This document shows positions 18,701 through 63,022 of a DNA stretch of 64,000 nucleotides, in pieces (the first letter of the stretch is position 1; each line of letters begins with the position of its first letter). The notes under the pieces were generated by a model. It saw only the letters and a program-made list of their open reading frames with translations. It ran no database searches and was not told the origin of the DNA. This DNA is from Bilabrum cf. latius (lineage: Eukaryota), in assembly GCA_965178125.1 (NCBI GenBank), contig OZ237757.1, positions 868,001 to 932,000 of the forward strand, read 5' to 3'. The position numbers and the translations under genes were made by a program.

Positions 18701-21700
18701 TCGCCGCAGGCGGCAGAGGATGGCGCAGGTGCTGGTGCAGGTGGGACCGTAGGGACACGTAGAGGGGCCGGCTCACCTGGAGGCTCCGAGGCCAGTGGGA
18801 GCGGCTCTCGCGATGCTTCTGCTGGAGAACAGGCGGACTCGTTCGGGGGCGCCCCGGAAGTGGGGGAGGCCGGGGATAAGGAGAAGGAGAGGAGGACGAG
18901 GAACAGGAACAGGAACAGGAGCAAGCTCGGTAAGGCTAGCTCGCCCGGCGGCCTGGGGCACTCGGCAGCGGGCGAGGGCGGACAGGGCCAGGGCCAGGGG
19001 GGCGGGCCAGGGGACAGCACGAAGCGGGGGGTTGGGACGCATAATGGGACCGAGCGGAAGGAGGATGAGTAGCAATAGGGAGGCGACGAAGAGGAGGACG
19101 AGGAGGACAAGATCGAGAGGCAGGCCAGCGCGAAGAGGAGGAAGCAGGCTGTCGACCGCATGGCCAAAGAGGCGGCCAAGCACGTTTGGAGGGCGCCGAG
19201 TGGGGCGGTGGCGGGGGGCCAGCCCAAGATCGTGCTGCTGCCGGGGGCGGATGACGACGAGGAGGACGAGGACGAGGACGACAGCATGCTGTTCCCCCAG
19301 GCTGGTGTGGGTTTGAACCCTGCAGGCATGGCGGCGGGCGCGTCGGTGGCTGGCGGCGGCGTTCACGGGGCTCTGCTGGAGGAGGACGAGGAGGGGATGG
19401 AGAGGCTGGTGGACGAGGTGATCGAGGAGGACGAGATGGAGTCCATGGGCGGGTCACGGGGGAGGCGCGGGGGTATGCTGGGCCCTGGGGGGGTGGAGGA
19501 CGAGGACGAGGATGGGGGCCTCGGAGGCAGCATGCACAGCACGGGGAATGCCGTGCTCCGTGGCCTGGGCCTGTCTGACATGATCAGGACCGAGCCGGAC
19601 GCGGGGAGCAGCGTGGACCTGTACGGGAAGAGCCCAATGGAAGCAGTGGGAGGCGGGGACTCGGCGTCGTTCAGGTCCCTGGACGGACCCTTCTCGCCCC
19701 ATTCCCACGGACAGGGACAGGGACAGGGGAGGGAGAGGGAGAGGCGGAGGGGTGGCGGCGCGGAGTGGAGGCCCAGGAGCCCGGAGCACGAGGCCGAGGT
19801 CTTCGCGAGGCTGCACGGCATGTCGCAGATGCCGCCCGCCCAGTCACCGGGGGACGGGGGGAGGGAGAGGGCGGGGCGCAGGGGCAGGCGCCAGCGGGGC
19901 AGCAAGCCGAGGCACAGGCGCCGAAGCTTCGGCGCCGGCTCGCCGCTGGGCAGGAGTGTACCCCCCGGGACGCCACACTCGTCATCATTTTCCTTCTCGC
20001 AGCCGTCGACGCCCGGGGCGGAGGCAAAGGAGGCCAAGGACCGGGCGGACACGGAGCCGCACGCGGGCTGGTCGGGGCAGAGGGAGAGGCGGGGGAGCGC
20101 GCTGGCCTACGCCATGCGCGGGAACGCCACTGCGGCAGCGCGGGCCGCTGCCGCCGGGGCGGGCGTTGACCTGGGGCCCGTGCCGGGGTTCGAGACTGGC
20201 GAGTCGGTGACCACTGCGGATGCGGACGCGGGCTTGGCTGCTGCGGTTGAGGTCGGTGGAGGAGGAGGGGGAGGGGGCGGTGTTGTTCAAGATGGGTCGA
20301 TGGAGGTAAAGGGGTGGAGGGGGGCCTTACCGGTGGACGAGCGCGAGCCAGCGGAGGGGCCAGTGGGACCGGTGCGCCGGGGCAGTGCAGGTGCCATGAT
20401 CCAGTCGCGGGGGCAGCCCCTCGGCGCCGTGCCAGAGGCGTACGAGAAGGAGGAGGAGGAGGCGGAGAAGTCCAGGGGAGTGGGCAATGGCATCAGCAGG
20501 GGCAGGGGCGGAGACACGAACGCGATTGCCGACTCGTCTTCTGTGCTCACTGAGGCGTCCTCGATGGAGCTAGGGAGCGTGGAGCTCGGGCGAGAGCAGG
20601 GGGCGGCTGGGGCAGCCGGGGCTGGGTCGGGGCCCAGGGAACAAGGAGCGGTGCAAGGCAGTGACCCGGCGGAGGAGGAGGAGGCCAAAGCCAGCGAGCG
20701 CTACCGCGACATGAGCCAGATGTGGCGGGCCTCGAGGCAGCAGATGGGCCGCGTGCTGGCCAGCGGGACGCTCATCATGCTCAATGACAGGCTGGTGAGG
20801 GAGCGGGACCTCCCCGCGGGTGTGGTGGTGAGCGCCTCGGATGACGGGTCCACGCTGCACCGCACCATCCGTGAGGTGGACCTGCAGGTGATCAACGAGG
20901 CACTGCGGCATGGGAGGGGCGACGACTCGGGGGTGCTCCGGGGGCTCTCCCACGTGTGGATGGGTGTGCCCCAGGGGTCCTGCGCGGGATCCTGCTTCTG
21001 CTGCTGCTGCTTCCCCCGGGGCTGCCAGGGGTTCAGGCGCGAGTGGAAGCTCATGTGCTGGCCCGCCTGCCTGTCCATGCCGGCGGACGCGCCCTCGCTC
21101 AAGCACGTGATCAGGCAGGAGCCTGGGGACGACCTGCCGCTGCCCGTGGTGAGAGGGGGAGAGGTGCAGGGGCAAGGGCAGGAGCAGGCCCGGGGGCAGG
21201 GGCAGGGCGAGGGCGTGGTTGCTCCAGTCCCGAAGAAGAGAAGGAGCAGCCTTACGGGGGCTTTGGACGTGGTGGAAGATGCCACCGCAGCAGGCGCGGT
21301 CCACACTCGCCAGGAGCAGCAGCAGCACTGCCTGGCTGCTGTGGCCCGTGCCACCGGGGCGACCGCTTCCCCCGCAGCCGTGAGCGTGCCCATCGACCGT
21401 TTGGACGAGGTGGAGCAGCAGAGCGCGGGGCGGCCGCGTGAATCTCAGGTTGCTCCCGCGGCTGCGGCTGCTCTGCCTTCGCGCGCCGGGGACGCTGCCG
21501 CTGCCGCTGAGCAGGAGGATGCCAACACGTCTTCAGCTGCCGCTGTTGTTGCTGCTGCTGATGCCGCTGATGCTGCGGCGATGGGTGCCGAGGTGGTGCT
21601 GACCAGCGGCAGCAGCTCGGCAAGCCCCGGGCCAACAGACGGGAGGACTGGCACGGTGGACATGCTGGGCATGCGGGAGGTGGGGGTGAGAGGGGGAGGG

Positions 21701-24700
21701 GGGGTACGGAGGGGGGCCAGCGGAGGGGGGAGTACAGGGAACAAAACCGGCTGGTCTGCTGGGAGGAGTGGCGGTCGGCGCCGAGGGTCCAGTGGGAGCA
21801 AGCGCAGAAGCAGCAGAAGCAGTGGCGGGCCCTCCGTGCCCAAGTCGGACACCCCCCTGCACATGGGCATGCTGGTGCGCATCCACAGCCTGCAGACGAT
21901 CAACTCGACTGTTTACCCCTCCAACGGGCACGGGAACACCCGGCGCAGCGTGGGCACGGTGCAGGGCACCGAGACTTCGATCGAGGTGACGAGGACGGAT
22001 TCGAGCGGGGCGCTGGTGAATGCTGTGTCCCGGCGGGCGGGCGGGCGGGAGAGCGAGTCAGAGTCAAAATAGAGCAGTGGTAGGGGCAGGGGCAGGGCGC
22101 CCATGCTGGGCAAGGAACAAGAACAGGAACAGCGGCAGGCGGGAGCGATAGAGCCGAGCATGTCTCGGCGCGACCTGGCCATCGCCCGCATCCGGCAGGC
22201 CAGCGCCAGGTCACTCGGCGGCGGAATTGGGGCGGGCGCGTCGAGCCGGAAGAAGAGGAAGACTGTTCCCTCAGGAGGAGGAGGAGGAGGAGGCGGTGCC
22301 GCCACTGCCCCTGCCAAGGGCGCATCAAGCTCGGACCAGTACCGCTCGCTGCCCGAGCAGACGGCTGACGCCGTGCTTGCGGACGGGCTGGAGGACGACA
22401 TGGAGGTGTTGGGCAGGCACGTGCTGCTGGAGAGCTTCGAGAGCGAGGAGCAGCTCATGGGGCGCTGCGTGGTGCATCCCTCTGGGTGGATCAGGAGGTA
22501 CTGGGCCATCGTAATGCTGCTGCTCATCTTCGTGACGGCCATCCAGGTGCCTCTCGTGATCGGGTTCTCGGTGGGCAGCAGCGTGCCCATCACCACATTC
22601 GAAGGGGTCGTGGACGTGCTCTTCGCGGCCGACCTTTTGCTCTCCTTCAGGACGGCCTTCTTCTCGGAGGAGCACGACGCCGTGGTGGCTGTTCCCTGGA
22701 TGATAGGGAACAAGTATCTGCGGACGGACTTTCTGATCGACCTCGTGTCCACAGTGCCCATCGACCAGATCGTGGACGCGAGCATCGGCGGGGGAGGATC
22801 CGCCTACCGCTCGCTGAGGCTGCTGCGGTCCGTGCGCCTCATCCGCCTGCTGCGGCTGCTGAAGCTGTTCCGGTTCTTCCGGCTGCGGCGCATCAGCAAC
22901 AACATCACCTTTGACCTATCCCTGCCCCCCGCACTGGTGCGCATCTCCGTTCTCCTCTTTCAGGTGCTCATGGTCTCGCACTTCATCGCGTGCGCGCTCT
23001 TCTACTCGTCGCACGTGACGGCGCCCATGGACGCGTTCCATAGGAGCGAGGGGGGCCTTCAGGTGAAATTCCACGACCACTAGCCCGAGCCCTTGCAGGG
23101 GGATTTGCTTGCGGGCAACGACACGCTGGCCGGGGTTGGGCTGGGGATGGGCAACGACACGTCCGGGGCCGGCAATGCGACTGTTCTGGACCCGACGTAC
23201 GCCGAGCGGTGGTGGACTTGGAATACGGAGCCCACCCTCGGAGACCAGTACGTGGCAAGCCTCTACTGGGCGCTGACCACCATGACCACCGTGGGGTACG
23301 GTGACCTGACTGGCATCACCCTGCCCGAGCTGGTGGCCAGCACGGTGGCGATGCTCGTTGGAGCCACGACCTTCGGGTACATCATCGGGAGCATCTCGGG
23401 GCTGGTGACCCGCATCAACGCGTCGGGGGCGCGCTTCGCCGAGAAGATCGAGGAGGTGACCGAGTACCTCAAGGACAGGCGGGTGCCGGCCAAGCTGAGC
23501 GAGGCTGTGATCGAGTACTACCAGTACTACCTGGCGAGGAAGAGCGCCTTCGACGAGGACCTCATCCTGGAGGAGCTCAGCGACAATCTGAGGAGGGACG
23601 TGGTGCTCTTCCTCAACAAGGACATCATCAAGAGGGTGCCCTACTTCATGCACAAGGACCCCGAGTTCGTCTCGCACGTGGTCTCCCTTCTCAAGCCGCA
23701 GTACTACTACCCGGACACGTACCTCTACAAGGAGGGGGAGATCGCCCTGGAGATGTTCTTCCTGGTCAAAGGGAGGGTGGCCATCGTCAGCGAAACGGCG
23801 GGGGATGCGCCCGTCATCCCCGAGTAGGGGGAGCCGGACCGTTTTCCGGACGAGGAGGACGAGGCGTGGACGCCCGAGGAGCAGGTGCTGGCCACCCTCG
23901 AATCGGGATCTTACTTTGGGGAGCTGGCGCTGCTGCTGGGGGTGCGCCGGTCCTCCTCTGCCAAGGCCACGTCCAGCTGCAACCTCTTCGTGCTGACCAA
24001 GGACGACATCCGGACCACCATCGCGTACTACCCCGCGCTCGCGGCCAAGATGGAGGAGTCCCTCCGGGAGACGATAGGACGGCTCGGCAGGATCGGGCCC
24101 TCGGGCCGGCTGGAGAAGAAGCAGGCGGGCAACATCCTGGCGCAGACGTTCTTGCGGTCTCTCAAGAAGAAGGGCAAAAGCAACGCCAATTCCAACGGCG
24201 ATGGCAATGGCGATGGCGCCGGTGCTGGCGGTCCCGGAGCGGCGGATGGTGGCCCGAGCGCGGGTGTCGCAGCGGGCCCGACTGCTGCACCGCTGGCGGT
24301 TCCCATTGCATCGGTTGTGGATGCGGATGCGGCAGAGGAGGCCACGTCACCGCGCACTGCGAGCTGGAGGCCGTTTCAGGGGCAGGCAGGGCCGGGGCCA
24401 GACCGTGGGGCAGACCAGTTGGATGGGGAAGAAGATAGGGAGATCGCGAGGGCTGCAGCGCCGGAGGGTGCGGACGGCTCGTAGGGCGTGCCGCTTGGTG
24501 CGGGTGTCGGTGTCGGTGTCGGGAGCACTGGCAGTGCCTAGGACGCCTCCTCGCCGAGCCAGGAACACTAGCAGGATCAGAACGATGAGAATGAGAATGA
24601 GAATGAGAATGAGAATGAGGAGGACGTTGGATCCACCTAGGCCCCTGTCACCGCAGTGGTCCCCGGCGAGGCGGGCCCAGAGGTCGAGGGGGGAGCAGTC

Positions 24701-25003
24701 GGCAAGGGCACAGTAGGTGCTGCAGATCTCGTGGATGGTGGCTAGAGTCGCGCTCATACGGACGAGGGCAGACCTGAGGGGCTGCTGGAGGGGCATGCGG
24801 GAGCCAGCCATGGGGTGGAGGAGGAGGAGGAGGAGGAGGAGGCTGTGGAAGACAGTCCAATGTCTCAGCTGCCTGGGGCGGTGGACGGACCGCCCGCGCC
24901 GGTTGGGTATGGACGAGGGGCAAGCCAAGGCTCGGCGGCAGTGGCAGGGGCAGAGGTGTAGACTGGCTGCGACGACGTCGATGGGGGTCATCCGGCAGAT
25001 TGA
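15758..25003 (+). CDS. Cyclic-nucleotide-binding-domain (HCN/EAG/CNG-like) channel with two tandem 6TM-pore-CNBD modules (~2907 aa)
   Basis: Exons 15758-16341, 16465-16592, 16754-16858, 16981-17108 and 17225-25003 splice in consistent phase. Two S4 segments (RTLRLTRLLKLAR; RLLRSVRLIRLLRLLK), two pores (TMVAVGFGD; TMTTVGYGD), two C-linker/CNBDs (FGDVGVL; FGELALL). Last exon has 12 in-frame TAGs and ends at TGA 25001-25003. Confidence 0.85.
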
Positions 25004-30534: not shown

Positions 30535-33500
30535 ATGCAGCCCAGTAATTTCATGAACTATGGTGGTTAGGACGTGCCATCAGAAGTTGGTGAATCGCGA
30601 GGGATGCAAAAGACATAGGCATCGTCGGCTGAGTATGCTGCTCGCTCCCATGCTTCACCACCAACTAGCACTGATAATCACGCATTGGACGGAGAAGGAC
30701 TGGCATCGCTAGCACCGACATTACCGAGCACTACCTACAGCGAAGGGGCTGCATCAATGGTTGGAAGAGGTCCAGCAGGTGGTTCTGTGAATGGCGACGG
30801 GCTAGCACCAGCAAGCGCTCCCGGTGACGGCAGCGCACCTTAGCAGGAGCCGCGGAGCTTGGGTGCATCAACACTTTCTGTGACGTCAAGCCAGTCAGCA
30901 TCCGCTTCATCAGCCTCTGCGTCATCGTCTTCATCGTCGTCCTCCTCTGCGGCCACCACAGGTGCACGGCGTGAGGCTGCCAGCAGTACAGGCATAGCCC
31001 CAGGCAACGCACCGGCCTCGCCATTCGAAGTATCCAGTAGCAGAGCTGTAGCACCAGATCCTAGCGAATCGGGCGCGCGAACTGATAGCCGCAGCAGTCG
31101 CAGTCCCACGCGAGATCCGCCCACAGACAAGACCGCTGCGGCAGAGCAGACACTGTCGCAGTCGCAGTCTCAGTCGCAGGCGCAACAACAGCAAACGAAG
31201 CAAAGCGAGGAGGTAGAGCCTGAAGACCTGGACGCCGCGCTGCAGCAGGCCCACCTGGTGAAAGTGTACAGGACGGGCGTGGCGGCGCAGGACGAGTCGC
31301 AGCAGCAGCCGCAGCCAGCGCAGAAGTGGAAGGACGCAGGGGTGGGCTACATGCTTGGCTGGGACCTGTGGAGAGCAGGGGCGCGCAAGGGCTGGCTGGC
31401 CCCTCTGCTGCCGCCGAGACAGCGTCATGGCCAGGGAGGTCCTGGATCTGGCACTGGCACTGGCATTGGGTCTGGATCAGAGTCGAGTTCGGGCGAGGGG
31501 TTGGACGGCGTGCAGCAGCTGCTCCGGGCCACGGCTGGGGTGCCTCAGTTCCGTTTGCTTGCGTTGCGCAAGGCGGGCCTTCGGCAGGTGCTGCTGTCGG
31601 ATCCCTTGGTGGGGCGCTGGGGAGTGGAGAGGGGCGGGCCTGAGCATGCCTTCCGGCTCGACGCGAGCCCCGCGGCGGCCGGGACCGCAGGGGACGGGCA
31701 AGGGCAAGTTGGCTCGGGTGAGTAGTCGAGGAGCGAGCTGGACGAGGCGGAGGCCAACTGGGTGGACGTGCTGCGGCACAGGGGTTTGGACCATCTGGCA
31801 TAGCGGGCGAGCAGGGCGGGCGCGTACGGGATGCAGTCGGTCACCTTTATTCTGTGGAGGTCCGGGCCCATGAGGAGGGCGGGCGTCAACTAGAGTCTGG
31901 GCAGGACGAGGCCCAGCCAGTGGCACGAAGGCCAGTGCGACGTGTCTCTGTCCTTCAACGAGAGCGGGGGCTGTGCTGCGGTGTGGAGGGGGATCGTGGC
32001 AGCGGTGGCGGTGGCTGGTCTGCAGGCCCTGCAGAGGCAGAGGCAGAGGCAGGGAAGGGTGCCAGGTGCGCTGGAGAGTCTGGGGGGATAGGCGCCTATG
32101 GAAGATGGTGACATGCTGGATCTGGATGGCGATGAGGAGGAGGAGGAGGAGGAGGGCGAGGACGAGATGGAGGGGGGCGGGGATGGGATGGGCGCTGTCA
32201 GCATGGAGGCTCTAGCTGCCGCTGCTGGGCTTGAGGGGGGGGTTGGGTCCCCCCCAGGAACTGAGGGGAGCGGGTCAGGCCGCGGGGGCAGTGGTAGTGC
32301 GGGTGGGGAGGGCGGGGAACAGAGCCTAGATCGTGTGCGGGGAAGCTCAGGGTTTGGGCAAGCAGCAGCACCACGATCCGCAGCCACAGCCACAGGCGCT
32401 CGCAGGCAGCACCGCATGGAGCCCTCGGGGGAGGATGGTGCGGATCATGAGGACGACGAGGGGGACACGGATGACGAGGGTGAGGGCGCGGGTTTGGCCG
32501 TGGGTGGGCGGAGCGCAGATGGAGAGGAGGGTGAGGGCGAGGCGTGGATGAACAAAGACTGGAGGGAGGACGGGTACAGCGAGCACGAGCACGCGACGGG
32601 TGGTGGAGAGCATGCGGGGGGCGGGATGGACATCCTGGGGCATGTGCGTGGGAGTGTCATGGGGCAGAAGCAGGGATAGGGAGTGCGTCGGCGGGGGGCA
32701 GGGCGGCAAGGGCGGGGAAATCAGCCGGGGGCTGGTGGTGCAAGCGCTCGCAGCAAGCGGCGTCACGTGGATCCGCTATCGAGACAGGTGCCAGTGAAGA
32801 AGAAGAAGAAGGGAAATCTCGGTGGCAGAGGAGACTAGGACGAGGAAGAGGACGATGAGAGCGCGTTCAGTGACGAAGACGACGAGGCCGAGGCAGGGCT
32901 GGACATGATGGGAATCGTGACAACGTTCGGCAGCAGGGCGGACGCGAAGAAGAGGAAGAGGCAGAAGGAGTACCTCAGCACCAGGTGGGTCCCCACGCCC
33001 AGGCACATGCGGGAGCTGCCCGACCCCTCCCCCGATGCGGGCGCCCTCGAAGATGTGCTCCGGGTGCTTGACGAGGCCTGCGAACCCACTGACCGGGAGG
33101 AGCTGGAGCTGGCGCAGGAGATGCCTTCGGGCGGGGTGCTCGCCAGGCTGCAGCAGCGCAGCCAGGTCAAGGAACAGCACTGGCCCCAGCGGCTCGTCAG
33201 GAACCAAGTCAGTTTCCTGAGGGCAGTGCCCGGCACGCTGGCCGCGTTGGAGCGAGCGGGGGACGAGCGCGGGCTGATGCTGCTGGGCCGGGTCGTGGAG
33301 CACGCCCTTGGTGTCCCCGAGCAGCAGGTGGTGGAGGCCTGCGTGTCGGACGAGGTGTGGCCGGGCATCCTCGGAGCCATGGAGTGGGCCCCGCTGCACC
33401 TGATCGCGGAGCAGCGGACGGGGCACGACGGGGCGCGGCGGTGGGCCCTCCGGAGGCACGGGGCGGACTCGCCCGCGGGGATCGAGGCAAGGGCCAGGGC

Positions 33501-34571
33501 CAGAGCGGGGGCGGGGGCACGGGGTTTCGCAGCGACGGGGACGACAGCCGGGGTGGCGTCGTTGTCGTCATCGGCAGCTGCCGCGCCGGGGAGTCCTGGG
33601 TTGGCAGCCTTCACGCGTGTGAGCGGCGCGCCTGGCTCTGGCTTTCTAGCCGGGGAGCCTGCCGTGCTGCCCTCAGCGGCGCCTGCCAGCCCCACCCCTG
33701 GCCCTCCTTCTGGCTCGCAGCACCCCCTGGCCGCGTGGATGGTGGCGCCCCCTTTGCCCTCGGGCAAGACCGCACTCAGACGGCCGGCCGTGCACCTGGG
33801 TGCAGAGGCGGGCAGCCACGCGAGCCGGCCACTCGGCGCGCACTCCACGGCGAGGCTTGCAAGCAGCGTCGGTAGCGGCACAGTTTTGTAGGAGTCCAGT
33901 GACGCCGCGCTGTCCACCACCCCGCCACTGACCGCTTTGGAGCCGCCGGTGGTGCTGCCCACGCAGCTTACCCTGGGCCCGGCCCCCCAGGTGGTGTCCG
34001 GCGTGGGCGCCAGCCGGCCCCACTTCCGTCAGTTCATGCGCAGGCTGCAGTGGAAGGTGGGCGGGAGGGGGCTCTCTGAGGAGCTGCGCGCCACCTCGAT
34101 GCGGTGCCTGCGCCTGCGGTTCCTCAGCGAGAGCTTGTTCCCCAGGTCGCTGGACGACCCCGTGCACCAGCTGAGGAACAGGCTGCTGCAGCAGCAGGAG
34201 GCCCGACTGGTGCTGGGGGTGGTGATGGAGGCGGAGGATGAGGCGCGGTGGAGGCGCAGCATCCGACTGGGCACCCAGCTGCAGGACTACCTTCGTGACA
34301 GCGGAGACAAGGCAGCGAGGGACGGGGGCTCCACCCCAGGTACGGAGGGGGGCCGGGTCAGGCAGCGGCCCTGCTTCCTGACGTCTCTACTGAGGCAGCT
34401 GTGCCTCGCCAGGCTGCCCCCGCCCGACCTGCGCACCGTGCCAGAGGACGTGGAGCGGGATGTGGTGGCCCTGGGGGGTTGGGAGGGGGAGGGGGACGGG
34501 ACATCGCCGCTGCTGGGCCTTCCAGAGGCTTCTCTGCCCCGGGTGCAGCCGGGCGAATCGCGAGGGGGGGC

Positions 34572-34609
<38 letters not shown>

Positions 34610-37398
34610 CGGCGAGGCTCCCGCGCTCCGATGGTGCCCGACCACGAGCTGGAGCTGGAGCAGCGGCAGAGCCGGCGGTTGTAGGAGGGTGCGCCCGCAA
34701 GCGCGGGATCGATCCCCAGCTGTACCCAGTCACGGCCCAGCTGGCGCTGCAGAGGGCAAGGAGGGGCTTTCAGCTGGCGCAGGAGGCGGCTGCAGACAAG
34801 GACCACGGCCAGGAGCAAGGGAGGAGTGGGCATGGTGCTCATGCCGGTGCTCCCGGTGCGGGCCGCCACCAGAGGAAGAAGCCCCTGCTGGTGCTCCCGC
34901 CGCTTCCACGCAAGCCGAGGTCCATCGGGCGGAGGCGCAGGGACGCAGACGGCGCCTCTGCTGGAACCGGCGAGCTATCTGGCGGGGGGCAGCTTACCCC
35001 CAGCAGCGCCGGGATGGGCAGCATGGGCGGGATGGGCCCTGCTCGAATGGGGAGGGGTCCTTCCACCCCCATGAACCGGGGTTTCTCGGGGGGGGGCCTC
35101 ACACCCATAAGCGGGATGAGGGGGGGCACGGGCACCCCGGGTGCTGACATGCACGGGGCGGCACCGCTTGGTGGTATGGGCAGCGCAAGCGCCCCGGAGG
35201 CCACCCCGCTGCAGGCCAGCGCGCCCCAGGACGCTCTCCGCACCCTGCACGCGCTGGCGCATGCTGCCAACCGCAGCGGCATGGCGGAGTACCGCCCCTC
35301 TCTGCTCCAGCGGCTGGTGGAGTGCACGCCCCTCTTCGTTGCTGCGCTGGAGCCCTTCCTGGCCCCGCATGGTCTCTCCCACGCAGTCACCGCCCGGGCC
35401 CTGGACACGCTGGCGCTCGCTGCCAACGCGGTGCCCAGGGCCCTCCGGCAGCACGTGCTCCGCATGAGCGACGTCACGGAGCTCAGGGTGCCGCCCTCGC
35501 ACGAGCAGAGCGGCGACCCCGTGCGGGCCTGCGTGCGTCTGCGGTGGTTCCAGGCCTGGGTGCGCGAGAGGAAGAGGGGGGCGGAAGAGGAGGAGAGGAG
35601 GCTGAGGAAGGCGCTGGGGGTTAGCCCCATCACGTTCGAGGGGGAGGAGGGAGGTGGCGGTAGCAGGGCGGTGCAGGCGGGAGGGTCCCCCAGGGGCAAT
35701 GAGCTGGCGGGATCCAAGCGGAAGCGGATGCAGTCGCAGTCGGGCACGGGCTCTGCGAGAAAGAGCGAAGATAGGCCGGGCCTTGGCGCAGCCGGGCAGC
35801 GGCAAGGGGAACGGCCCTCTGGGACAGCCTCCTCCTCTGGTCTGTCCATGCAGAGGGGCGGTGCGGGAATCGCTTCACCTGGTGGTATCGTTGCGTCTCG
35901 GTGGCAGCACGCGGGGGAGGAGGGAGAGGGGGGGGCGTCAGACGGCGATGCGGACTCGAGCCTGGATGGATTCAGCAGGAGCTCAGAAGACGCCTCGGGG
36001 CCCAGGGAGGCATCGAGGGCCAGCACGAGCATGGAGCAGGAGCGGTCGGGCCAGCGTGCTACGAGCACTGGCAGCACAGAGACGAGAGGCACCGCGGGGG
36101 CAGAGAGGAGGTCGGGAAGCGGGTCGCCATCCAGGAGCAGTGAGCCGTCGGAAAGTGCATCGCACGGTGGTGCAGCCGACGGCCCGGACCGCAAGAAGCG
36201 CAGGACGGAGGCAGGGGCAGTCAGGGCGGAGTCAGCGGCTTCGGCGGCGTCCAACACGGCGGTGCTGGGTGGCATGGTGCTAGCAGATGGTACAAATGAA
36301 AAGGCGGAATAGGTGCTGCGCGGGGACTAGGATTCAATCGAGGGTGCATCATCCGGAGCTGGAGCTGCCGCTCTCGCCACCGCGAGTGCAGCCGATGCTG
36401 CTGCTGCTGCTGCTGCTGTGAGTGCTGCTCGCTCCACTCGGGGGGTTGAGGAGGCCCAGCTGAGCCCCCTACAGCTCGCGGTGCAGGCGTGGCGGCGCGC
36501 AGTGGCCCCTCTCCGGCCCCAGAGCCCGCTGGCTCTGCTCAAGGCAGCTGCGGCTGGCACCGGCACCGGCACCGGCCCCGCCAGCAGCGGTAGCAGCAGC
36601 AGCACTGGTGCTGGTACGGAGGCCGATCGACAAGCAGCCACGATGGCAGCCGAAGAGGAAACAGGCGCCGACATGCGCGGGACCAAAGCGAAGGATGACA
36701 AGGAGGAGAAACAGAAGGAACAAGAGGAAGAGGACCCTGCTGTGCTGTTCGGGCGGCTGGCAGTGGGGGAGAACAGGGACGCTGCCGAGCTGCTCGAGGC
36801 CCGCTCGACTGGGCTGGTGCGGCTGGGGGCAGGGGACGGTCTGATGCCGCTGCTGGGGCGGTGCCTCGTGGACTCGCCCGATGACACGGTGCGCCGGCGG
36901 GCCCTGGAGGTGTTGGACACGCTGGCCAAGAGGGACGAGGCCCCGCCCGAATCGGCCACTTACCCCGGATCTGCCAAGCGCCACGAGTGGGACGCGTTCG
37001 CAGGCTGCGCGCAGCAGGGCCACTACTGGGAGAGCTGCCTGGAGGGACTCAGGAGGCCACAGCTGACGGGGGCTGCGCCCATCCGGGTGGGAGATGCCGC
37101 GAAACTGGCGCTGTGGCTGGCCCACAGGGAGGGCGCCACGGACCAGGGGCTGGGGGAGGACCGGCGGGAGGAGGACGAGGAGGGTCTCGGGGACGACTCG
37201 GTAGGGGCGCCAAGGCACAGGCAGTCACTGGCAGGCGCCAATGAGAATGGGGGCGCTGGGCGCTCGGGTGCGCTGGGGGATGTGGAGCAGGTGAAGCGAG
37301 ACATGCACGCCCGGGCCCTTGAGCTGATGTGGTGCGGCCTGATGGGAGACGAAGAGGCGGCGAGGGTGGGCCGCAGGGCGGTGCGGCTTGACGAGAGG

Positions 37399-37430
<32 letters not shown>

Positions 37431-39501
37431 TCAGGCCACACTCGGTGGTAGTGCTGCGACAGGCCGTCCGTCACCAATGGAAGGAAGCACATCGGAAGGG
37501 AAGGGATAGGGAACTGGAGAGGCCGAGGCGCGCCCCATCCACCCTTGGCTGCTCCAGTGCCTGGGCGGGCCGCTGCCGCGCAACCTCAAGGGCGCCGTGG
37601 GCTGGAAGCAGGCGCGCATGGGCGCAGCGCAGCCTGACAGCAGCCCGAAGCATGCAGCACGAGCAGCAGGGGAATCGGGCCATGCGCCCGCCTCTGGTAT
37701 AGCTCCACAGGCTGGCTCGTCCGATGGACCCGGCAGTCTCCCCGGTTGGGCGCTGAGCTCGTGCAAGCAGCAGGCGTGGCTGCTGCAGGCTCGCTTGCAG
37801 GAGGCCACGGGGGCGGCGGGGCGCGGGCCGGGCACTCGGGGCTACCTGGAGGACGAGAGCAGCACGATGGGTGACGAGTGCTTCAGTCGGCTGTAGGACG
37901 ACCTCTGGCACTGGCGCCAGGTCGCGCTGGCGAGGCCCGACCGGATCCACGCAGGGACGCACGGGCTGGCGCGGGTGGCACTGGCGCTGCCTGATGCCGC
38001 CCGCGGTGCTGTGCTTCTGGCCGGGGCGCTGGTGCACAGCACGGACAGCCCCGCGCTCGTGGGCATGGCAATGCGGCACAGGGTGCTCGACCCAGTGGTA
38101 GCGTGCTATTTGGCCTCGTGTACCCGTGGCAGCGTGCTCGCGTCGTCGTGCCTGACCCTGCTGGACACAGCCAAGGGAAGGCAGGCGTGGAGGCAGACGG
38201 GCGTGGGTCTGCGGGAGGTGCTGTGGGCGGTGCGCAGGGCGGGGAGGGAGGCGAGGTTGGCTCGGGATAGAGTGAAAGCACTCGAGTAGGAAGAGGAAGA
38301 GGAAGAAGAAGAGGAAGAAAGAACAGAGGCACAGGCGAAGGGGAAAGGCAAGGAGGGGCCCGGTCGTCACGGGTTCGGCGCGGAGGCAGGGACCTCGAGG
38401 GGAGTGCAGGGGACCTCGAGGGCGGTGGAGGGGACCTCGAGGGCGGTGGAGGCGGCCCGCCGGCTGGAATCGTTCTGGAGCTCCCTGTCGAGAGACGCGG
38501 GGGTGCTGTGCGAGCTGGCGATCTCCCCGGGGCGGAGCGAGCAGGCGCGGGAGGCGAGAGCGAAGGTTTTCGACTGGATGAGCGAGCAGGCGCGGGGGGG
38601 TGGTTCCCATGTCTTTTCCTCTGCTGCATCGTCTTCCCAGCCGTCGGCCGCGATGGAATTGGGCGCAGGCACAGGTGTGGGCACGGGCTTTGCAACGGGT
38701 GCGGTGCACGACGCGCTGGAGGTGGTGCTGCGTGTTCCCTGGGACCCCCTTCTGGAGTCAATGGGTCGTCGGGGGTACATTGCTGCGGCCCCCGCCCCCG
38801 CCACTGCCTCGTCTCTGGGCACCAGTTCTTCCGACCCCACCGTGGGGGTCGGGCCTGGGGGGTCAGCCCCGAGCAGCCCTCCTGCGGGGGCAAGCCACGA
38901 GCAGCAGGTCTTGGATCCATCGGCGGGCAGCGGGCTCGGGGGCAAGCAAGGCAGTGGGGCAGAGGTGCCAGCCGCATCGCCGTCCCCCTCTGAGCCGTAG
39001 CCATCATCGTCATCATCATCGCCGTCCCCCTCTGAGCCGTAGCCATCGTCATCATCATCATCATAGTCATTATCGTCATCGCTGGGCGGCGAGGCAGCTA
39101 CTGGAGGGCCCCCCGGCCGGCCCCCTCCCCTGCAGCTGTGCCTGCGGAGGAGCCCCTCCACTGCTGCAAGCGATCAGGAGGGAGGCAAGACGCCCCCGAC
39201 CACTGCCACTGCCACTGCCACTGCCAGCGCAGGTGGAGGCGCGGGTGGGGGCGCCGGCGGAGCTGGCCTCAGGCTGTCCATCGGGGTGAGGGCGGTAGGG
39301 AGCGGCCCGAATGTGCCGGATGCAGACGGCGCGGAATCTCCCAGGGTCGTGGTAGACAGTGCGAATGGGACAAGCACTTCAGGTGCGAGGCCGAGGATAT
39401 CCGTGTCGGCCCCCAGGCTGCAGTGGGGGCAGCTGGCGGCACGGCGCGCTGAGGAAGACGAAGACGACGACCTCCCGAACGCCTTTGCAGGGCTAACTTG
39501 A
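30535..39501 (+). CDS. Protein phosphatase 4 regulatory subunit 3 (PP4R3/SMEK/Psy2)-like, greatly expanded (~2988 aa)
   Basis: One frame from ATG 30535 to TGA 39499-39501 with 18 TAGs and no TAA/TGA. EVH1-like elements HLVKVYR, KWKDAGVG, YGMQSVTFILW, VSLSFNESGGCAAVW and SMK-1-like CLRLRFLSESLFPRSLDDP, recognised by eye. Confidence 0.7.
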
Positions 39502-39593
39502 AGCCATTACATAATTCCTTTCAAGTTTGTAGATGTTAGTTCGGCTCATCGGAAGTGTGAGCAGAGCACCACGCAATCTCAAGGCAAAAGCAC

Positions 39594-39599
39594 AAAAAA
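39594..39599 (-). terminator. RNA polymerase III terminator (T6) downstream of the tRNA
   Basis: TTTTTT on the minus strand, 7 nt after the discriminator base. Confidence 0.75.
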
Positions 39600-39606
39600 G
39601 AACAAT

Positions 39607-39679
39607 CCGCGACAGCAGGATTCGAACCTGCGTCTGATGGAGTTAGAGTCCACTGTGCTAACCACTACACTATGTCGCG
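39607..39679 (-). tRNA. tRNA with anticodon CUA (reads UAG); probable tRNA-Gln(CUA)
   Basis: Minus strand reads CGCGACA TA GTGT AGTGGTTA GCAC A GTGGA CT-CTA-AC TCCAT CAGAC GCAGG TTCGAAT CCTGC TGTCGCG G. It has a perfect 7-bp acceptor stem, D arm with GG, 5-bp anticodon stem, U33, TTCGAAT loop and intact A/B boxes. Anticodon at 39644-39646. Confidence 0.95.
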
Positions 39680-39900
39680 ATCATCCTTCAAGGCGGATCC
39701 ATCATATACAAACATTTCAATGTCCTACTTAAATACATTGACTGGAAATTCTTATTGAATCCACTGTCTTCCTCTCACCACGATCTACTGCTGATAGGTC
39801 TGTCAGCAGTGGTCGTAATGCGTTTGATTTGTGCTTTGTGTACGAAACGCATGGCAGTCTTTGGACTTGAAAAAAAATGTTGGTGCCAAATCAATAGCAT

Positions 39901-40295
39901 TCAGCCCTCGTAAGAAGGAAAGCAGTCGGCAAACGTCTTTTTGCTATGCTTCGAATCTACATGTGCCTGCAACTGATCCTTGCGCTGGGTAACGCTGAAC
40001 GCCTGCCTGCATATCTGGCAAGTCTGGCCGGTCATTCCCGCTCGCTTCGCGATTCCTCCTGCTCCCCCGCCTGCGAGGGAAAAAGTAGCAGATTATCCAA
40101 CGGAAACCAATTCTTGTACATCGCAACGAGATATTACTGTTAGTAGTGCGGCATCTATGCTGCGGCCGGGACGAACAAAGCCTAAGCTGGGTCCCGTGCG
40201 GAGCCGGCATTGCGCCGAGGCTGATCTACAAGACTACAAACCTCACCTCCAGCTTTCTTTGCGCCCATTCGTCGTGCCTTATCCTCACGGGCCTT
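39901..40295 (-). CDS. Small C2H2 zinc-finger protein (ZNF706/4F5-like); 5' exon(s) not resolved
   Basis: Exons 40247-40295 and 39901-40070 give KAREDKARRMGAKKAGGGGAGGIAKRAGMTGQTCQICRQAF...LQAHVDSKHSKKTFADCFP. TGA stop. Confidence 0.75.
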
Positions 40296-41965: not shown

Positions 41966-42084
41966 TTCTTGGATTCCTCTCCTGCTCGGCGTTCGTCATA
42001 TCAAGGAACCTTCATGAAGCACTCCACGAACCGCTCGAGCGAGAATCCAAGCATTTCAGCTGGCAGCTAATACGTTTCGTGCCG

Positions 42085-42829: not shown

Positions 42830-43650
42830 TGCAACTTGAAGGGGCTTGCGAGCGAAACCCCGCGTCATACCAGATGCCCGCCTAATTGGTTCAAATTGCG
42901 CGCAGCAGGATGAATCTGCTTTGGCACCAGAAGAGAAGAGGGGGAGGGGGAGGGGGCCGGCAGCAAGGGCTGCACACGCCTGTGTAGGTAGGTGGCAGAG
43001 GTTACCAGCGCCCGACCGACCGACCAACCGACCGAGCCACTGGACCAGGGGGTTCGATTCCACGAGGGGATGGGCTGCACTGTTGCTGGCTTCCAGTTTC
43101 CACGACGACGTCAGGCTGCTTGGCACTCTCCCTGTGTCAGCTGCCAAGTGCCCCCTGCCAGTGGAGTGGAGGAGCACGCGTGCACATCGGTGCGCTGCCG
43201 GGCGCAGCTGGCGGTCGCACAAGCTTCCATGTAGGTCCTTTTGGTCAAGACCTGCGAGACTAAGCTGAGCTGCAAGCTACAACTTGCTGCAAAGCGCTGA
43301 ACTTTGCTTGATTGAGGAACCTTCATCTGCCCTGGCCAGTGGCCACCGTGCAACCATGGGATGGAGAAGCATAGAAGAGCAGTGTCGTGCACGATGCTAC
43401 ACCAATTTAAACCGACTAGTTATATCTTGTTCATGTCAACGGTAAGCTAAGCGTTCGAGTGATTCATTGAAGGCTTTGCGTATATGCCCCTCAACTTCCG
43501 CTGGTGAGCGCTGGCAAAATCCGATCGTGCTGCGCGCAGGCTGTTCTGGGTATCGCATGCACGGCCAACTCGCTTCAAATTCAGTTCAGTAAATCTGGCT
43601 CATCGATAGTTAGAGAAGGTAAAGTGGTGACAAACAAAGTATTTGCTGCA

Positions 43651-46218
43651 ATGGAACGAAGGATGTCGTCGGGCGATAGGATCCATCTATCCCTTCCTGA
43701 AGCGGGCGGGAAGGCTTTTCACGAAGTCGTACAAATAATCGCCTAGGGCAAGACGTAGGCGTATCCTTTGTTCGTGACGGGGGGCGCTGATGTGCGAGCC
43801 GCAGTTTGCGAAGGCTTGGGCAGGGCTATCGGATCTAGCCGTAACATATCGAAACTCGAAATCGCACTCGCGACGAGAGTTGGTCAAAAAAACGACCAAT
43901 ATTCGTGCTTCGTTGCTATAGCTCGAGCAGTGAAGGCCAGTCGAAGTATTACCACGCTGGCTGTGATCGGCGGTGGCATTCCCGACACGTGGATCAAGGA
44001 GTGGGCCGATGCCATCGACGGGCATCCCACGCTGCTAGAATTCTACTTCAACGAGCAGAAGATCTCTACAGTAGGCGCCAAGCAACTTCTGCGCGCCGCC
44101 CTCCGCAGCCCCAACCTGATCCACCTGAGCCTGGCACGCAACCGTCTGGGCGACACTGGGGGCGCTGGTCTCGCCGAGACCATGCGCCTCGCTACATGGC
44201 CAGGAGGGGCTTCTGGCCCGCTGCATCACCTGGACCTGTATGGCACCGGCATAACGAACAATGGAGCAGATTCCCTAACACAAGCCCTCAAGAGCACAAG
44301 CTGCCAGCTCCCGCTGATGCACCTCTCCGGTCTAGAGCTCGATCACAAACGGACCGAGGCGATGAACACCGCGCTGCGACTGCAGTCCAGAAGGGCTAGA
44401 GCGGCCAGCGCGCTCCTACAGAAGGCTCCCACGGCGGGTCGCGCCCTCGCCCTGCTCCGACTGGAGGCGCCATTCTCCTCCTCGCGATCGTGGACCACAG
44501 GCGATGCGGCTTCATTCGTGGCACAGGCCCTGGAGAACGAGAGGGCGCAAAACAGGACAGAGGTGCTGCGGCGACTGGTCGATGCCATGCAGCGGAGGGG
44601 ACGGGTCGAGGAGAGAGCGAGGCGCGTGGGTGGGCGGGCGCTTCCGCAGCTTGGGCCCGGTCCCGTCGATCTTGCCAAGGCAGGCTCGGTGCAATCGAGC
44701 TGGCCCATCATGACGGAAGCGATGCGACAGACTGGTCATGCAACTGCTGACCTGGCAGAATCGTGCCGGGGTCTTTTAAGGCGAATCGCCCGGGCATTTA
44801 ATCATGTTGCCGACCCCGAGGACGACGACGAGGACGAGGACAAGCGTGGTACCGGACTAGCAATCAGCGAGAGATTATTGGGCGGGAGCAGCGCTCCGGG
44901 GCAGTGGAGTGAAGCAAGCGTAAAACTGGCGGTGCAGGTGATGCAGGGCAACGCCGGCATTCCAGCCTTCGACAAGATGGACCAGGACGAGCGCAAGCAG
45001 ATGCACAGTATGGCAAGGCTATATCTCCTGTCGGTGCTGCCGCAGGATGGGGCGGTCGAAGCGGCATCGCGAGCAGGATTGGCTTCCGATCACATATGTT
45101 CGGCGCGCCTAGCAGCGGACTGGCAGTGCTCTGCGCTCGAGCTGCAACTTCGCAACGCCTGGAACGAAGCGATGAAGTAGAAGCGCCAAGCAGAGGCCGA
45201 GGCGGAGAGGAAGAGACAGTAGGGAAAGAAGGCCGCGGCAGAGTAGAAGCGCCAAGCAGAGGCCGAGGCGGAGAGGAAGAGACAGTAGGGAAAGAAGGCC
45301 GCGGCAGAGTAGAAGCGCCAAGCAGAGGCCGAGGCGGAGAGGAAGAGACAGTAGGGAAAGAAGGCCGCGGCAGAGTAGAAGCGCCAAGCAGAGGCCGAGG
45401 CGGAGAGGAAGAGACAGTAGGGAAAGAAGGCCGCGGCAGAGTAGAAGCGCCAAGCAGAGGCCGAGGCGGAGAGGAAGAGACAGTAGGGAAAGAAGGCCGC
45501 GGCAGAGTAGAAGCGCCAAGCAGAGGCCGAGGCGGAGAGGAAGAGACAGTAGGGAAAGAAGGCCGCGGCAGAGTAGAAGCGCCAAGCAGAGGCCGAGGCG
45601 GAGAGGAAGAGACAGTAGGGAAAGAAGGCCGCGGCAGAGTAGAAGCGCCAAGCAGAGGCCACGGCTCTGTGGCCATAGGCAAGGATCTTAGATTCGGTTG
45701 TCAGCACGGCAGTCGCAGGGATAGCGGTGGTTGTGCTACTAGGAGGGGTGGCAGCATGTCCGTGTTGCTGGTGCGTGTGGCCTGTGCTGCTCTACCTCGG
45801 GTTGGTGGCAGGGGACAACGATGGCGATGGTGATGGTGATGGCGATGGCGATGGCGAGGACGATAGCGATGGCGATGACGATAGCGATGGCGACGACGAT
45901 GGCGACGATGGTCGCGACGACGGTAGAGGCAACGATGGTGATGATCGTACTAATGACAGTGGTGGCAAGGAGAAGAAGAAAAAGAAAAAGAAGGGTAGGA
46001 GCCGGAGGAGGGGTGGAGGGGAGGGGCCAATATCACCAACCAGTGGGCATGCATTCACTGCAGGCGAGTCGAGCTCCCCGCGCAATACCGTGGAGCCACC
46101 AGAAGTTCCCAGTCAGGACTTGGGCTCCCAGACTGATCAATTGGCTCACGATCCCACCTCCAACGAGTCGCTCCAGAGGCAGCACACCGGGGAGTCGGAC
46201 TGCGGGGACCCCACTTGA
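43651..46218 (+). CDS. RNI-like leucine-rich-repeat protein with a charged coiled-coil repeat stalk, a hydrophobic segment and an acidic tail (~855 aa)
   Basis: LRR-like units (LIHLSLARNRLGDTG, LHHLDLYGTGITNNG). One frame with 18 TAGs to TGA 46216-46218. Start uncertain. Confidence 0.65.
45178..45660 (+). repeat. Perfect 66-bp coding tandem repeat, 7 full copies plus 21 bp
   Basis: Unit TAGAAGCGCCAAGCAGAGGCCGAGGCGGAGAGGAAGAGACAGTAGGGAAAGAAGGCCGCGGCAGAG = (*KRQAEAEAERKRQ*GKKAAAE). Confidence 0.95.
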
Positions 46219-46491
46219 ATACCGGCGCGCTCACCTGCTACAGACAACGCCACGTATTCAAGAGGGCGAACGGGCGGGACAAATGCAGCTGCGTCCCTTC
46301 TTCAGCCATCATACTGTTAGATTTGTAGTCCGGCCCAAGCCCTCCTGGGCCAGCTGCAGCCTGATGAGCCTGATGAGGGCTCGGCAAGGAAACCCGGAAA
46401 AACGAACGAGCCAAAACCAACCAGGCGAAAAAAAAGCACCATCCTAAACGGGAAGCCAAATTTAGGGAGCGCCTAGTATTGTCCTTACTAG

Positions 46492-59393: not shown

Positions 59394-62198
59394 TCACAGA
59401 ACGTCATCGCCTCCACTATCAACACGTAGAGGGTTCGTGTTACCCACCCAGTCGCGGGTGCCACCCGTTACGACCCCCCCTGCAACTCTCCTCGGCGGTC
59501 CCGGCGGCCGCTTGCCCCCATTGCCACGGGCCACCCCCACTCGAGTCGTCCCCTCGGCGCCTTTCTCCTCCCCTCCTCGCTGGTCCGTGCTGCCACCATC
59601 AGCGGGCAGAGGCCCAGCCCGCGGCATGGTCGATGCTCCAGACACACCAGCAGACCCCTCGCTGCTTCCTCCTTTTCCCCCACCACTGGCACTGGCACTG
59701 GCACTGGCACCCTTCTATCCACCACTACCTACACCACCACCATCCTCGTCACTGTCTCCTTCATCGTCTGCATCTTCAAACACCGCCTCCGGGTATGTCT
59801 CGGGCCTGGCTCTCACGAACGACTCGGCCCAGCCCCCCAGCAGCATTCCCACGGCCGTCACCACCCCGGTCCTCACCACCACAGTCAGCCCGCCCACCGT
59901 GGCAAGCACGGAACCCAGGGCCTCTGCGGCAGAGGGCAGTCGGGACTCCACGTAGCTGCACCTGGCAGGCGCGCAGCTCCCAAAGTACGCGGCATAGTCC
60001 GTGGTGGCAGCCACACCGGTCCCGTTGGACAGGCTGGCCTCGCTGTTGCTGCTCCCCCGGTCCATGAACCCGCTGATCACCCCGGCAGCGATCACTGGAA
60101 ACCTAGACTGCTGCGCGTCCTCCAGGGGGGCCCTCGGCAGCCCGAACCCCAGCGTCCACACCTTCGAGGACAGCAGCCTGGTGGAGAAGGAGGCCACCCA
60201 CGAGGCGCGGGAGCAGCGCCACTGGAAGGGAATGGGCGCCTCGATGGATGGGGGAACAAGCGCCACCTCGTCGTTCCGCCGCACCAGGTAGTCCTCGAAG
60301 CACGTCTCCCCGCCCGCGCTGATGGCCCGCCTCCACAGGGGGTCCCGCATGGACACCTGGGGCCCCCCGGGGGCCGTGGCGAACTGCAGCACTTCCGGTT
60401 TGGAGGAGGACTGGGAGACTCCGGGTCCCTGGCTGGGCAGCCCGCTGGACTCGCTCTCCGGCCATGTGAGGGCCAGCAGGGTGGGCCCGATGGGGTCCGT
60501 GCCCACCTCTGTGGCCTCGTCGGGCTCGCATGGCCACTCGCGGATGGGCCCCGCCCCCGGGCCCGCGCTCACCACCGTGGTCCCGTTGGAGCACGTCAGC
60601 GAGGCCACGTGCTCGCACTGAGAAGCGGTCCCGTTGGACCTCCATCGACACACGCGGGAGGGTCCGTGCGAGTTGCAGTCGCTCTCCGTGGCCAGCTGGT
60701 GGCATCGCAAGGGGGCGGGGGCGCACTGCACGGAGGCCGACTCAGGCCCCTGCCCAGGTAGCGGGTCCCCCCTCAGGATCTGACACCGCGGCAGGGGCCT
60801 GTCCATGGGCACCCCAGTGCTGTTGGCCCCGCAGCCCAGCTCGCCGTCCCTGTTCTCGCACGCCTTGTCCAGGCACAGGGAGGGCTGACCCCCCGTTGTT
60901 CCCTGCAGGAACGAGCACGAGTCGCCGAGGGCCCCGCACGCCGCCTGCGAGAGTCGCGCGGGGCACACCGTCGAGTCGCAGAACGCGTCCGTCCCCCTGC
61001 CCACGTTCCCGGGGGTCCACCTGCAGAAGGGCCTGGTGCGGCATGCACCCGGGGTCAGGAGCGAGATGCAAGGGGTGAACGAGAACGTGTACGGCGCGGG
61101 GGGACCGCCCCCGGGGCCCGCCGCCGCGCCCGCGGGCCATACGAGTCCGTCGTGAGGCGCCGGCCCCCCGGGTGCAGAGGGGAAGAACGGCTGCGGGGCC
61201 CTCTGCCCGCCCATGAGCCCCGGCACGGTCAGAGGCTGCTCCAGCTCGGTGAGGGCGATGGACTGCTGCAGCGGGATGGAGAACCGAGTCACCGCCGCGT
61301 TCTGAGTCCCGGCCCTGGCCGCCTCCACCTGCGCCTCTAGCGTCTCTCTGGCCATGAGCTGCGCCGAGACGACCCTCCTGGCCGTGGCATCACGGACCTC
61401 AAGCGTGGCAGAGGCGTTGGCAAGGTCGCAGAAAGCGAATATGCTCCGCAGCAGCTGGCTAGCGGCCTACCCCACGCACCGTGTGCTGCTCCTGCACGCC
61501 AGCAGCGTGTCCTTTAACCCCGGCCCGCACATGGGATCCAGCTTGGCCTGCAGCGTGGCAAAGGTCCCCAGAGGGGCGGACAGCTGCGTGCAGGGGCAGC
61601 TCAGGGACCGCAGCCCATCCCCCGGGTCTGCCTGCCGCAGGGCCAGGGCGTCGTAGTCTGCCAGCGTGGGGGACTCCTACACACCCGGCTGGTCGCGGCG
61701 CCGCAGCTGCGGAACCAGGAACGCCAGGAACGCGACGAAGAGCACCCCGACGAACACACACGAGGCGGCCTGCCCCTACACGTGCTGCACGGCATACCGG
61801 CGGGTGGACCGCTTCAGGGCCCGCTCCTGCACAAAGTCAGGGAACAGCGTGAACCACCACGCGGTCTCCTTGCCCGCGTCCACCGCCTGCTGGCGCAGCT
61901 GCTCCGTGTCGAGCTGCATCGGGGGTAGCGACAGAGATCCACCGAAAGCTCCGGCGTGCGATGGCGCATCGGTCCCTTGACCCGATACAGCCATACTTGA
62001 AGATGTACCACCTGATGCTCTCTTGGCAGACGGCTCTGCCAGTCTCGCTGTGCTGCTGGCTGCGGTCCTCCGAGTCGGCACCTCGGACGAATCGCCGTCC
62101 TCTGCGACCCCGCCAGTTCGCAAGGGGTTGTACCGCGTTGCTCCACCCACAGACTCTTGAGGGAGAAGATCGATTTCTTGTTGTTCTTTCGAGCCCAT
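59394..62198 (-). CDS. Two-TM membrane protein with a large Cys-rich ectodomain (ENaC/degenerin-like topology, ~934 aa)
   Basis: One frame from ATG 62198 to TGA 59394 with TAG at 61776, 61677, 61467 and 59715. TM1 (CVFVGVLFVAFLAFLVP), PTLADYDAL..LSCPCTQ, Cys-rich repeats, DYAAYFGSCAPARCSY, TM2 (EALGSVLATVGGLTVVV). Confidence 0.65.
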
Positions 62199-63022
62199 CG
62201 CGCCTCGTTCGGCAGCTGACGATGGTTCGAAAGCCTGCTGTTGCCCTCGGTGCGCTCCGAGTGCGATACTATTGCGTGGCTAGCGTGGCGAGGGTCCCTA
62301 CGTCTAATGATTATGCGCACTCATTCAGGATGAATGGGTGAGCCTGGATGCGTCCCGCTGGGATGGCCGATTGGTTGAGGTACTGACCAAGTTTAGCAGC
62401 GGTGGAATGAGTCACAGCCACTTGCCGAGCTGCTCACCTTTGCTCGCGCGCTTTGGAGACTTTGCTGCTGGGTTGAGACTTAAACCCCACGTTATTGGTG
62501 TGCCTATAATTGGAGCAGCTTCTTGAGCGTTGACTCGGATTGGGTAGCACAGGAACTTGGACCAAGAAACGCCGAACGGCGGAGCGCAACCGTTGTGGTG
62601 TGACGAGCGACTCGGAGCTGCATCCGGATCAACGGAAGGGGCGAAACACATGCATCCTCGCTGCACGTCACGGACAGCTGTCGCGGCTGCTCAACAGAAC
62701 GCGGCCCCCATGAGGCCCGGCCACGCACACACACAGCTGGACTCATCATGAGACCATGCCAGCTCAGCGGCCTGCTGCTGCATGATGCCCACACGACGCT
62801 GTTGGCATGCTATGTCTCCCGGTCCATGGCCTGGTAGGGGTCAAACCTTGGGCAGATCACACCAGGGCGTCGTTTCGTGTCAAGGTTGTGCAAAGGGCAC
62901 TAGATCTAGCCCGCCTGCCAAAGCCAGCCGATGCTGCGGCGAGTGTTCGTGAAGGTTCTGTGAAGGCATTGGCTATCACGAGTTTCTGTCAATTTCACCC
63001 CTGATTCGGCGACACAAGGTGA

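Follow-up and report, generated by a model that had tools for sequence, protein, structure and literature searches.

A tRNA(CUA) gene beside genes with in-frame TAG codons in GC-rich nuclear DNA of a probable Cafeteria relative

Gene content of the window and affinity of the host

The window (i.e., the whole 64-kb stretch of DNA analysed) was intron-poor eukaryotic nuclear DNA with a G+C content of 58–70%, in which proteins were encoded mostly in uninterrupted frames (Table 1). Among these proteins were CCT4, 2-oxoacid dehydrogenase E2, GTP cyclohydrolase II, PIF1 helicase, a tandem cyclic-nucleotide-gated channel, H+-pyrophosphatase, and a HisA-like enzyme. The longest frame, an ORF of 2988 codons, ran toward a tRNA gene with a CUA anticodon, and a small zinc-finger protein gene lay on the other side of this tRNA. 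By eye, the 2988-codon ORF (30535–39501) looks like a PP4R3/SMEK-like protein, and a Pfam search with it returned no match. A PDB search with the weakly P2X-like ORF likewise returned no matches.

The best named match of CCT4 among the matches listed was from Cafeteria roenbergensis (69% identity), and a metagenome protein was 93% identical. A CCT4 tree was built from 25 rows, chosen for a name or a high score out of at least 120 matches. In this tree the window protein and its 93% metagenome relative were sister to Cafeteria with a support of 89/92, which is moderate and lies under the star threshold of the tree tool. This placement suggests, with moderate support, that the window organism is a relative of Cafeteria, a marine flagellate among the stramenopiles. 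According to the available text of 10.1101/751586, Cafeteria has a G+C content of about 70%, and no variant code was applied in annotating its nuclear genes.

Table 1. Positions of the genes and sequence elements of the window, with the evidence for each.
Feature	Position	Strand	Evidence or remark
1717-codon ORF, 5 in-frame TAG, stop TAA	78..5231	+	ORF analysis
H+-pyrophosphatase, no TAG	9366-12341	+	Sequence analysis
E2 acyltransferase, no TAG	13678-15162	-	Sequence analysis
Tandem cyclic-nucleotide-gated ion channel ORF, 13 in-frame TAG, stop TGA	16937..25003	+	Pfam
CCT4, no TAG	26382-27880	-	Sequence analysis
Short canonical introns, 98-330 nt	27881-28210, 40070-40245, 41606-41784	-	X5/X7 joints
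2988-codon ORF, 18 in-frame TAG, stop TGA	30535..39501	+	Convergent on tRNA
T6 run, likely RNA polymerase III terminator	39594..39599	-	7 nt past tRNA 3' end
tRNA gene, 73 nt, anticodon CUA	39607..39679	-	ARAGORN, Rfam RF00005, cloverleaf fold
Anticodon CTA (C34 U35 A36)	39644..39646	-	Read from sequence; same in L001
GTATAT, candidate TATA-like upstream element	39704..39709	-	-30 to -25 of tRNA; kept in L001
Small zinc-finger protein gene, last exon	39901..40092	-	Upstream of tRNA, same strand; joint 40069>40246 in X7
Short canonical introns, 98-330 nt	42371-42509, 43441-43538	+	X5/X7 joints
Leucine-rich-repeat gene, last exon, 18 in-frame TAG, stop TGA	43539..46218	+	X5 spliced contig
Weakly P2X-like protein, 3 in-frame TAG	48194-50197	+	Pfam P2X 15.2 bits, cut-off 27
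PIF1 helicase ORF, 3 in-frame TAG	50420-53230	+	Sequence analysis
Nucleotide-sugar or EamA-type transporter, no TAG	54821-56215	-	Sequence analysis
976-codon ORF, 7 in-frame TAG, stop TGA	59394..62324	-	ORF analysis

The tRNA(CUA) gene and its flanks

A first-pass annotation of the sequence had described 39594–39679 as an intact canonical tRNA gene with a CUA anticodon, intact A and B boxes, and a T6 terminator, situated about 105 bp beyond the stop codon of a gene with 18 TAGs. This description held throughout. ARAGORN found a single tRNA in the 64 kb (39606–39680, minus strand, anticodon cta); its label of ‘Pyl’ arises because the anticodon alone gives that label. On the Rfam model RF00005 the stretch 39679..39607 (-) scored 69.8 bits (E 3.6e-13), covering model positions 1–71 of 71, and the pseudogene-level covariance score that would have spoken against the gene was not seen, the gathering score being 29. 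The minimum-free-energy fold of the 73-nt sequence was a cloverleaf with stems of 7/4/5/5 bp (-25.6 kcal/mol, z -2.68), and only one of 200 shuffles folded as well.

All 21 stem pairs were standard and G-U pairs were limited to U13-G22 and G27-U43, in keeping with the earlier placement of G-U pairs at 27-43 and in the D stem alone. The anticodon loop was CUCUAAC, the same as the CU-CUA-AC reported before. The residues U8, A14, G18 G19, U33, T54–C56, and A58, conserved in tRNAs, were present in the sequence and in the Rfam alignment. The discriminator base was G73, at 39607, and the variable loop comprised five nucleotides (CAGAC). The B box was GGTTCGAATCC, and the A-box region, TAGTGTAGTGG, was one position off the consensus. 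CTG or CTC at the anticodon site (39644–39646) had been named as a finding that would count against the gene; none of the four sequencing runs compared listed a variant there. Run X2 consists of DNA and may be the source sample; one of its contigs (record 6) spanned 39240–40965 with no differences.

The T6 run occupied 39599–39594, such that the range given earlier comprised the tRNA plus its terminator. A T6 run was also present in the related metagenome contig L001 (described below), within 12 nt of the tRNA 3' end. Upstream, the flanks of the two tRNA genes had diverged and the GTATAT block (L001 1424–1429, plus strand) was the sole conserved stretch; it is a candidate for a TATA-like element used by RNA polymerase III. 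Downstream, exactly 105 nt separated the tRNA 3' end from the TGA (39499–39501) of the ORF at 30535–39501, and this ORF contained exactly 18 in-frame TAG codons.

TAG codons within the window genes

Altogether, the 12 window genes (14,093 codons) contained 71, 68, and 58 TAG triplets in frames 0, 1, and 2, respectively. The corresponding counts were 0, 234, and 151 for TGA and 0, 19, and 25 for TAA; because the frames were delimited by TGA and TAA, the in-frame zeros of these two triplets hold by construction. TAG was not avoided in frame, unlike TGA and TAA, and the 71 in-frame TAGs against no TAA or TGA agree with the TAG-only pattern noted in the first-pass annotation. These 71 codons were spread over eight of the 12 genes and made up about 0.5% of codons.

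The weight of the frames obtained by reading TAG through comes from their lengths and domain content. With TAG read through, the longest ORFs were 2988, 2695, and 1724 codons. The longest ORF was 1278 codons under the standard code, again 1278 codons when TAA was read through, and 1504 codons when TGA was read through. In the channel ORF, a Pfam Ion_trans match (1854–2161) spanned a TAG at residue 2049 and a cNMP_binding match (2255–2363) spanned a TAG at residue 2297.

Within the window, ten of the 12 genes ended at TGA, two at TAA, and none at TAG. The conserved C-termini of the E2 acyltransferase, CCT4, and the zinc-finger protein ended at TGA. In the 1717-codon ORF, a TAG-TAG pair (5118–5123) stood 36 codons ahead of the terminal TAA. 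The G+C content was 0.65 from this pair to the TAA and 0.49 beyond it, and the frame therefore seems to read through TAG-TAG.

Four of the 12 genes were free of TAG, namely CCT4, E2, H+-pyrophosphatase, and the transporter. Their third-position G+C (0.82–0.94) exceeded that of the other eight genes, perhaps because they are highly expressed. TAG behaved as a rare codon avoided by these four high-GC3 genes. At the other extreme, seven tandem units of 22 residues in the leucine-rich-repeat gene (45181–45642, plus strand) each contained two in-frame TAGs, giving 14 of the 18 TAGs of that gene.

RNA-derived contigs and introns

Contigs from runs X5 and X7 contained joints with GT..AG or CT..AC ends at 27880>28211, 41605>41785, 42370>42510, and 43440>43539. 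These spliced joints were not present in the DNA run X2. Because the joints have intron ends and are absent from X2, we infer that X5 and X7 hold RNA-derived contigs. One X5 contig (record 14, depth 67.5) contained both the 42370>42510 and the 43440>43539 joints and continued over 43539–45205 without a difference from the window. This stretch holds in-frame TAGs at 43744, 43756, and 45178, which consequently lie outside introns, and the possibility that TAG-bearing stretches are introns was ruled out by this spliced contig. Further X5 contigs covered TAGs of the 2988-codon ORF (30377–31614, 33521–34459, and 35939–37389); they are jointless and could be DNA.

The intron at 27881–28210 places the ORF-based start of CCT4 (28091) inside an intron. 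Contigs of both X5 and X2 broke at 45205, probably owing to the 22-residue tandem repeat. The word depth of X2 was 480–1600 at 31069–31735, 36405–37071, and 42408–43074, and about 110 elsewhere. These jumps coincided with low-complexity repeats coding for Ser/Ala/Gly, where several false long-range joints were also found.

Conservation in relatives

Using the tRNA as query and leaving the anticodon loop free, a scan of metagenome contigs matched one contig, L001 (3572 nt). A looser tRNA pattern, meant to bring in Gln and Glu tRNAs for comparison, matched neither genome contigs nor viral contigs. The L001 tRNA(CUA) scored 70.5 bits on the Rfam tRNA model, had the same anticodon as the window tRNA, and matched it in 71 of 73 bases. 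A single compensatory change in the acceptor stem, from C6-G67 to U6-A67, accounted for both differences. By our own count, the chance that two random changes hit one pair and keep it paired is about 0.4%. A covariation shuffle control, uninformative at two sequences, gave 253 of 500.

Gene order in L001 was that of the window, with the zinc-finger gene upstream of the tRNA and the C-terminus of the large ORF convergent downstream. The zinc-finger genes (window 39901..40092; L001 1218–1406) were 68% identical in protein and 73% in DNA, and the C-terminus of the 2988-codon ORF was 37% identical over 280 residues. Near identity of the tRNA, the compensatory pair, and the kept gene order, next to neighbours of 37–68% identity, argue for selection on the tRNA gene. 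The large-ORF fragment of L001 contained five in-frame TAGs in 637 codons and ended at TGA.

Matches to the 2988-codon ORF comprised L001 and the proteins P0242–P0245, and a search of representative proteins with its residues 1–1200 returned four proteins. When the leucine-rich-repeat protein served as query against shorter proteins, two were returned. Of this gene's relatives, P0247 (about 70% identical) ended one residue ahead of the second TAG of the window gene, and P0246, whose contig is recorded with an equal length, started further on. Such an end and start are as expected from a standard-code gene caller acting on a conserved in-frame TAG, and the two database entries appear to be split at it.

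Decoding of UAG and alternative explanations

The favoured explanation, given a probability of about 0.85, is that the gene specifies a functional nuclear tRNA(CUA) that is the cognate adaptor of UAG, a rare sense codon here and in relatives. The gene would depend on RNA polymerase III for its transcription, and its product would be expressed and charged. Its CUA anticodon would pair with UAG, with C34 reading G only. Because C34 pairs only with G, UAA would stay a stop; UGA would end most genes and UAA some of them, and the release factor is expected to have lost UAG recognition or to retain it in weakened form. The proposal of the first-pass annotation that this tRNA is the functional adaptor of the recoded codon was supported by the intact tRNA, the in-frame TAGs, the spliced contig, and the conservation in L001. 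A role as dedicated decoder is strongly suggested by these sequence features.

It is improbable that most decoding of UAG as a sense codon falls to another adaptor, for example a tRNA-Gln(CUG) acting as a near-cognate, a further suppressor gene elsewhere, or a tRNA(UUA), with the window copy being minor or silent. The search behind the single tRNA gene covered 64 kb of the genome, and in standard-code organisms UAG can be read through by near-cognate insertion of Gln, according to the available text of PMC13192750. However, a minor or silent copy is difficult to reconcile with a tRNA that kept 71 of 73 bases, a compensatory pair, and its gene order while its neighbours fell to 37–68% identity. 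A decoder with a UUA anticodon is further opposed by the absence of in-frame TAA from the 12 window genes.

Some ciliates and Blastocrithidia have context-dependent codes in which stop codons carry two meanings. An analogous dual meaning of UAG, with the codon read as sense within genes and as a stop at the ends of some of them, and with the tRNA competing against the release factor, was given a slimmer chance. Twelve gene ends were sampled, and the TAG-TAG pair 36 codons ahead of one TAA could be taken for such an end, but all 12 ORFs ran on to TGA or TAA, the G+C content dropped from 0.65 to 0.49 only after that TAA, and CCT4, the E2 acyltransferase, and the zinc-finger protein, whose C-termini are conserved, all ended at TGA.

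The remaining alternative, that TAG has kept its stop function, the long frames are chance ORFs, pseudogenes, or introns, and the tRNA is an incidental mutant or tRNA-derived repeat, has next to no probability and is regarded as refuted by the ORF lengths, spliced contig, frame counts, and L001 tRNA: GC-rich DNA does yield long spurious ORFs on both strands, but no comparable ORFs arose on reading TAA or TGA through, TAG was undepleted in frame where TGA and TAA were absent, Pfam domains spanned TAGs, the spliced contig kept in-frame TAGs, and relatives kept both the in-frame TAG and the tRNA.

Amino acid identity

Gln was taken as the tentative first choice for the amino acid inserted at UAG by the tRNA(CUA), Glu as a doubtful second, and Lys, Tyr, and all other residues together as unlikely, each to the same degree. 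The D arm and the anticodon stem (A31-U39, GGA-UCC) of the window tRNA presumably resemble those of eukaryotic tRNA-Gln and partly those of tRNA-Lys(CUU). G73, C38, and the variable loop are, on the same assumption, like those of yeast tRNA-Glu. Leu and Ser were rejected, as they require a class II tRNA with a long variable arm and the variable loop of the window tRNA is 5 nt. Ala requires G3-U70 according to the available text of PMC9976931 and was also rejected, the window tRNA having C3-G70. That text gives C1-G72 and A73 as determinants of eukaryotic tRNA-Tyr, and its identity table gives no eukaryotic Gln set. Both the window and L001 tRNAs have C1-G72, and both have G73 in place of A73. 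Overall, the features read from the tRNA appear to fit no single isotype cleanly.

The residues aligned opposite TAG in relatives were inconsistent and without consensus. Opposite a TAG of L001 the window has Q (CAG), in a conserved HWR-Q motif. Opposite other TAGs, Y was found in an 80%-identical relative, K in a 70%-identical relative, and D within an acidic run at 46% identity; an alignment of 37% identity had L, L, G, and V opposite TAG. When the channel ORF was compared with 14 homologues, all 13 of its TAGs fell in insertions or unaligned tails.

A neighbour-composition likelihood over 59 non-redundant TAG sites ranked Ser first (3.3), followed by His (-1.8), Gln (-2.0), Asp (-2.9), Glu (-6.7), Lys (-10.7), Leu (-12.1), Trp (-17.8), and Tyr (-26.8). 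This test is weak, and it is biased by the tendency of newly arisen codons to accumulate in disordered regions. Ser, at the top of this ranking, was ruled out by the short variable loop. An affinity to tRNA-Lys by BLAST against E. coli was discarded as well: the matches covered the T arm only (76–79% over 52–58 nt, E 0.04–0.5) and were non-significant and cross-domain.

Comparison with known systems

tRNA-Pyl has an atypical compact fold and PylS as its partner. The window tRNA shares the CUA anticodon with it and differs in having a standard cloverleaf with G18 G19, T54–C56, a 5-bp anticodon stem, and a 5-nt variable loop, and in its eukaryotic host. A tRNA-Pyl identity was rejected on account of this standard fold.

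In the available text of PMC11687900, UAG-only nuclear reassignments are few and the decoder tRNA has so far escaped detection in several of them. UAG alone codes for Gln in Iotanema spirale, Protocruzia tuzeti, and two phyllopharyngean ciliates, for Leu in a rhizarian and a TARA phyllopharyngean lineage, and for Ser in Scotinosphaera. Two TARA ciliate genomes are given there with tRNA(CUA) genes, whose C34 does not read UAA. The window organism resembles these systems in that UAA and UGA are still stops and a tRNA(CUA) is the predicted decoder. In contrast to them, it is GC-rich and a probable Cafeteria relative among the stramenopiles, and its main stop is UGA and not UAA. Unlike in the Leu and Ser systems, the tRNA has a short variable loop and is not of Leu or Ser type.

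Blastocrithidia nonstop, with its tRNA-Glu(CUA/UUA), is likewise a flagellate in which cognate suppressor tRNAs derive from an elongator tRNA (PMC12153298, available text). All three stops are reassigned in Blastocrithidia and UAA has two meanings, whereas UAG only is reassigned in the window organism. Other UAR-to-Glu codes also exist according to that text.

UAG-only reassignment with a tRNA(CUA) is thus already known elsewhere, and the Cafeteria-related lineage appears to be new for it. Among the titles and abstract openings that a full-text literature search of open sources brought up, none reported reassignment of a nuclear stop codon for bicosoecids, Bigyra, Opalozoa, or stramenopiles. 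The chances were put at even that this is the first nuclear stop reassignment known in stramenopiles, confined to UAG, old, common to at least three diverged members, and served by a tRNA(CUA) of mixed identity (C1-G72 with G73). If so, the three members would be the window organism, the relatives with 70–93% protein identity, and the L001 organism, and the mixed identity marks could mean an amino acid unusual for UAG, e.g., Tyr or Lys.

In the window organism, genes recoded for UAG and their conserved cognate tRNA would adjoin each other in a GC-rich genome in which TAG is rare and UGA is the usual stop. This arrangement offers a contrast with the AT-rich ciliate cases for testing stop-codon capture. 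Under the same explanation, standard-code gene callers will truncate the proteins of the window organism at each TAG.

Sequence near-identical to 36500–46400 (47–98% of sampled words) was found in runs under four organism labels from four studies. The window organism may often accompany, or contaminate, other cultures or samples.
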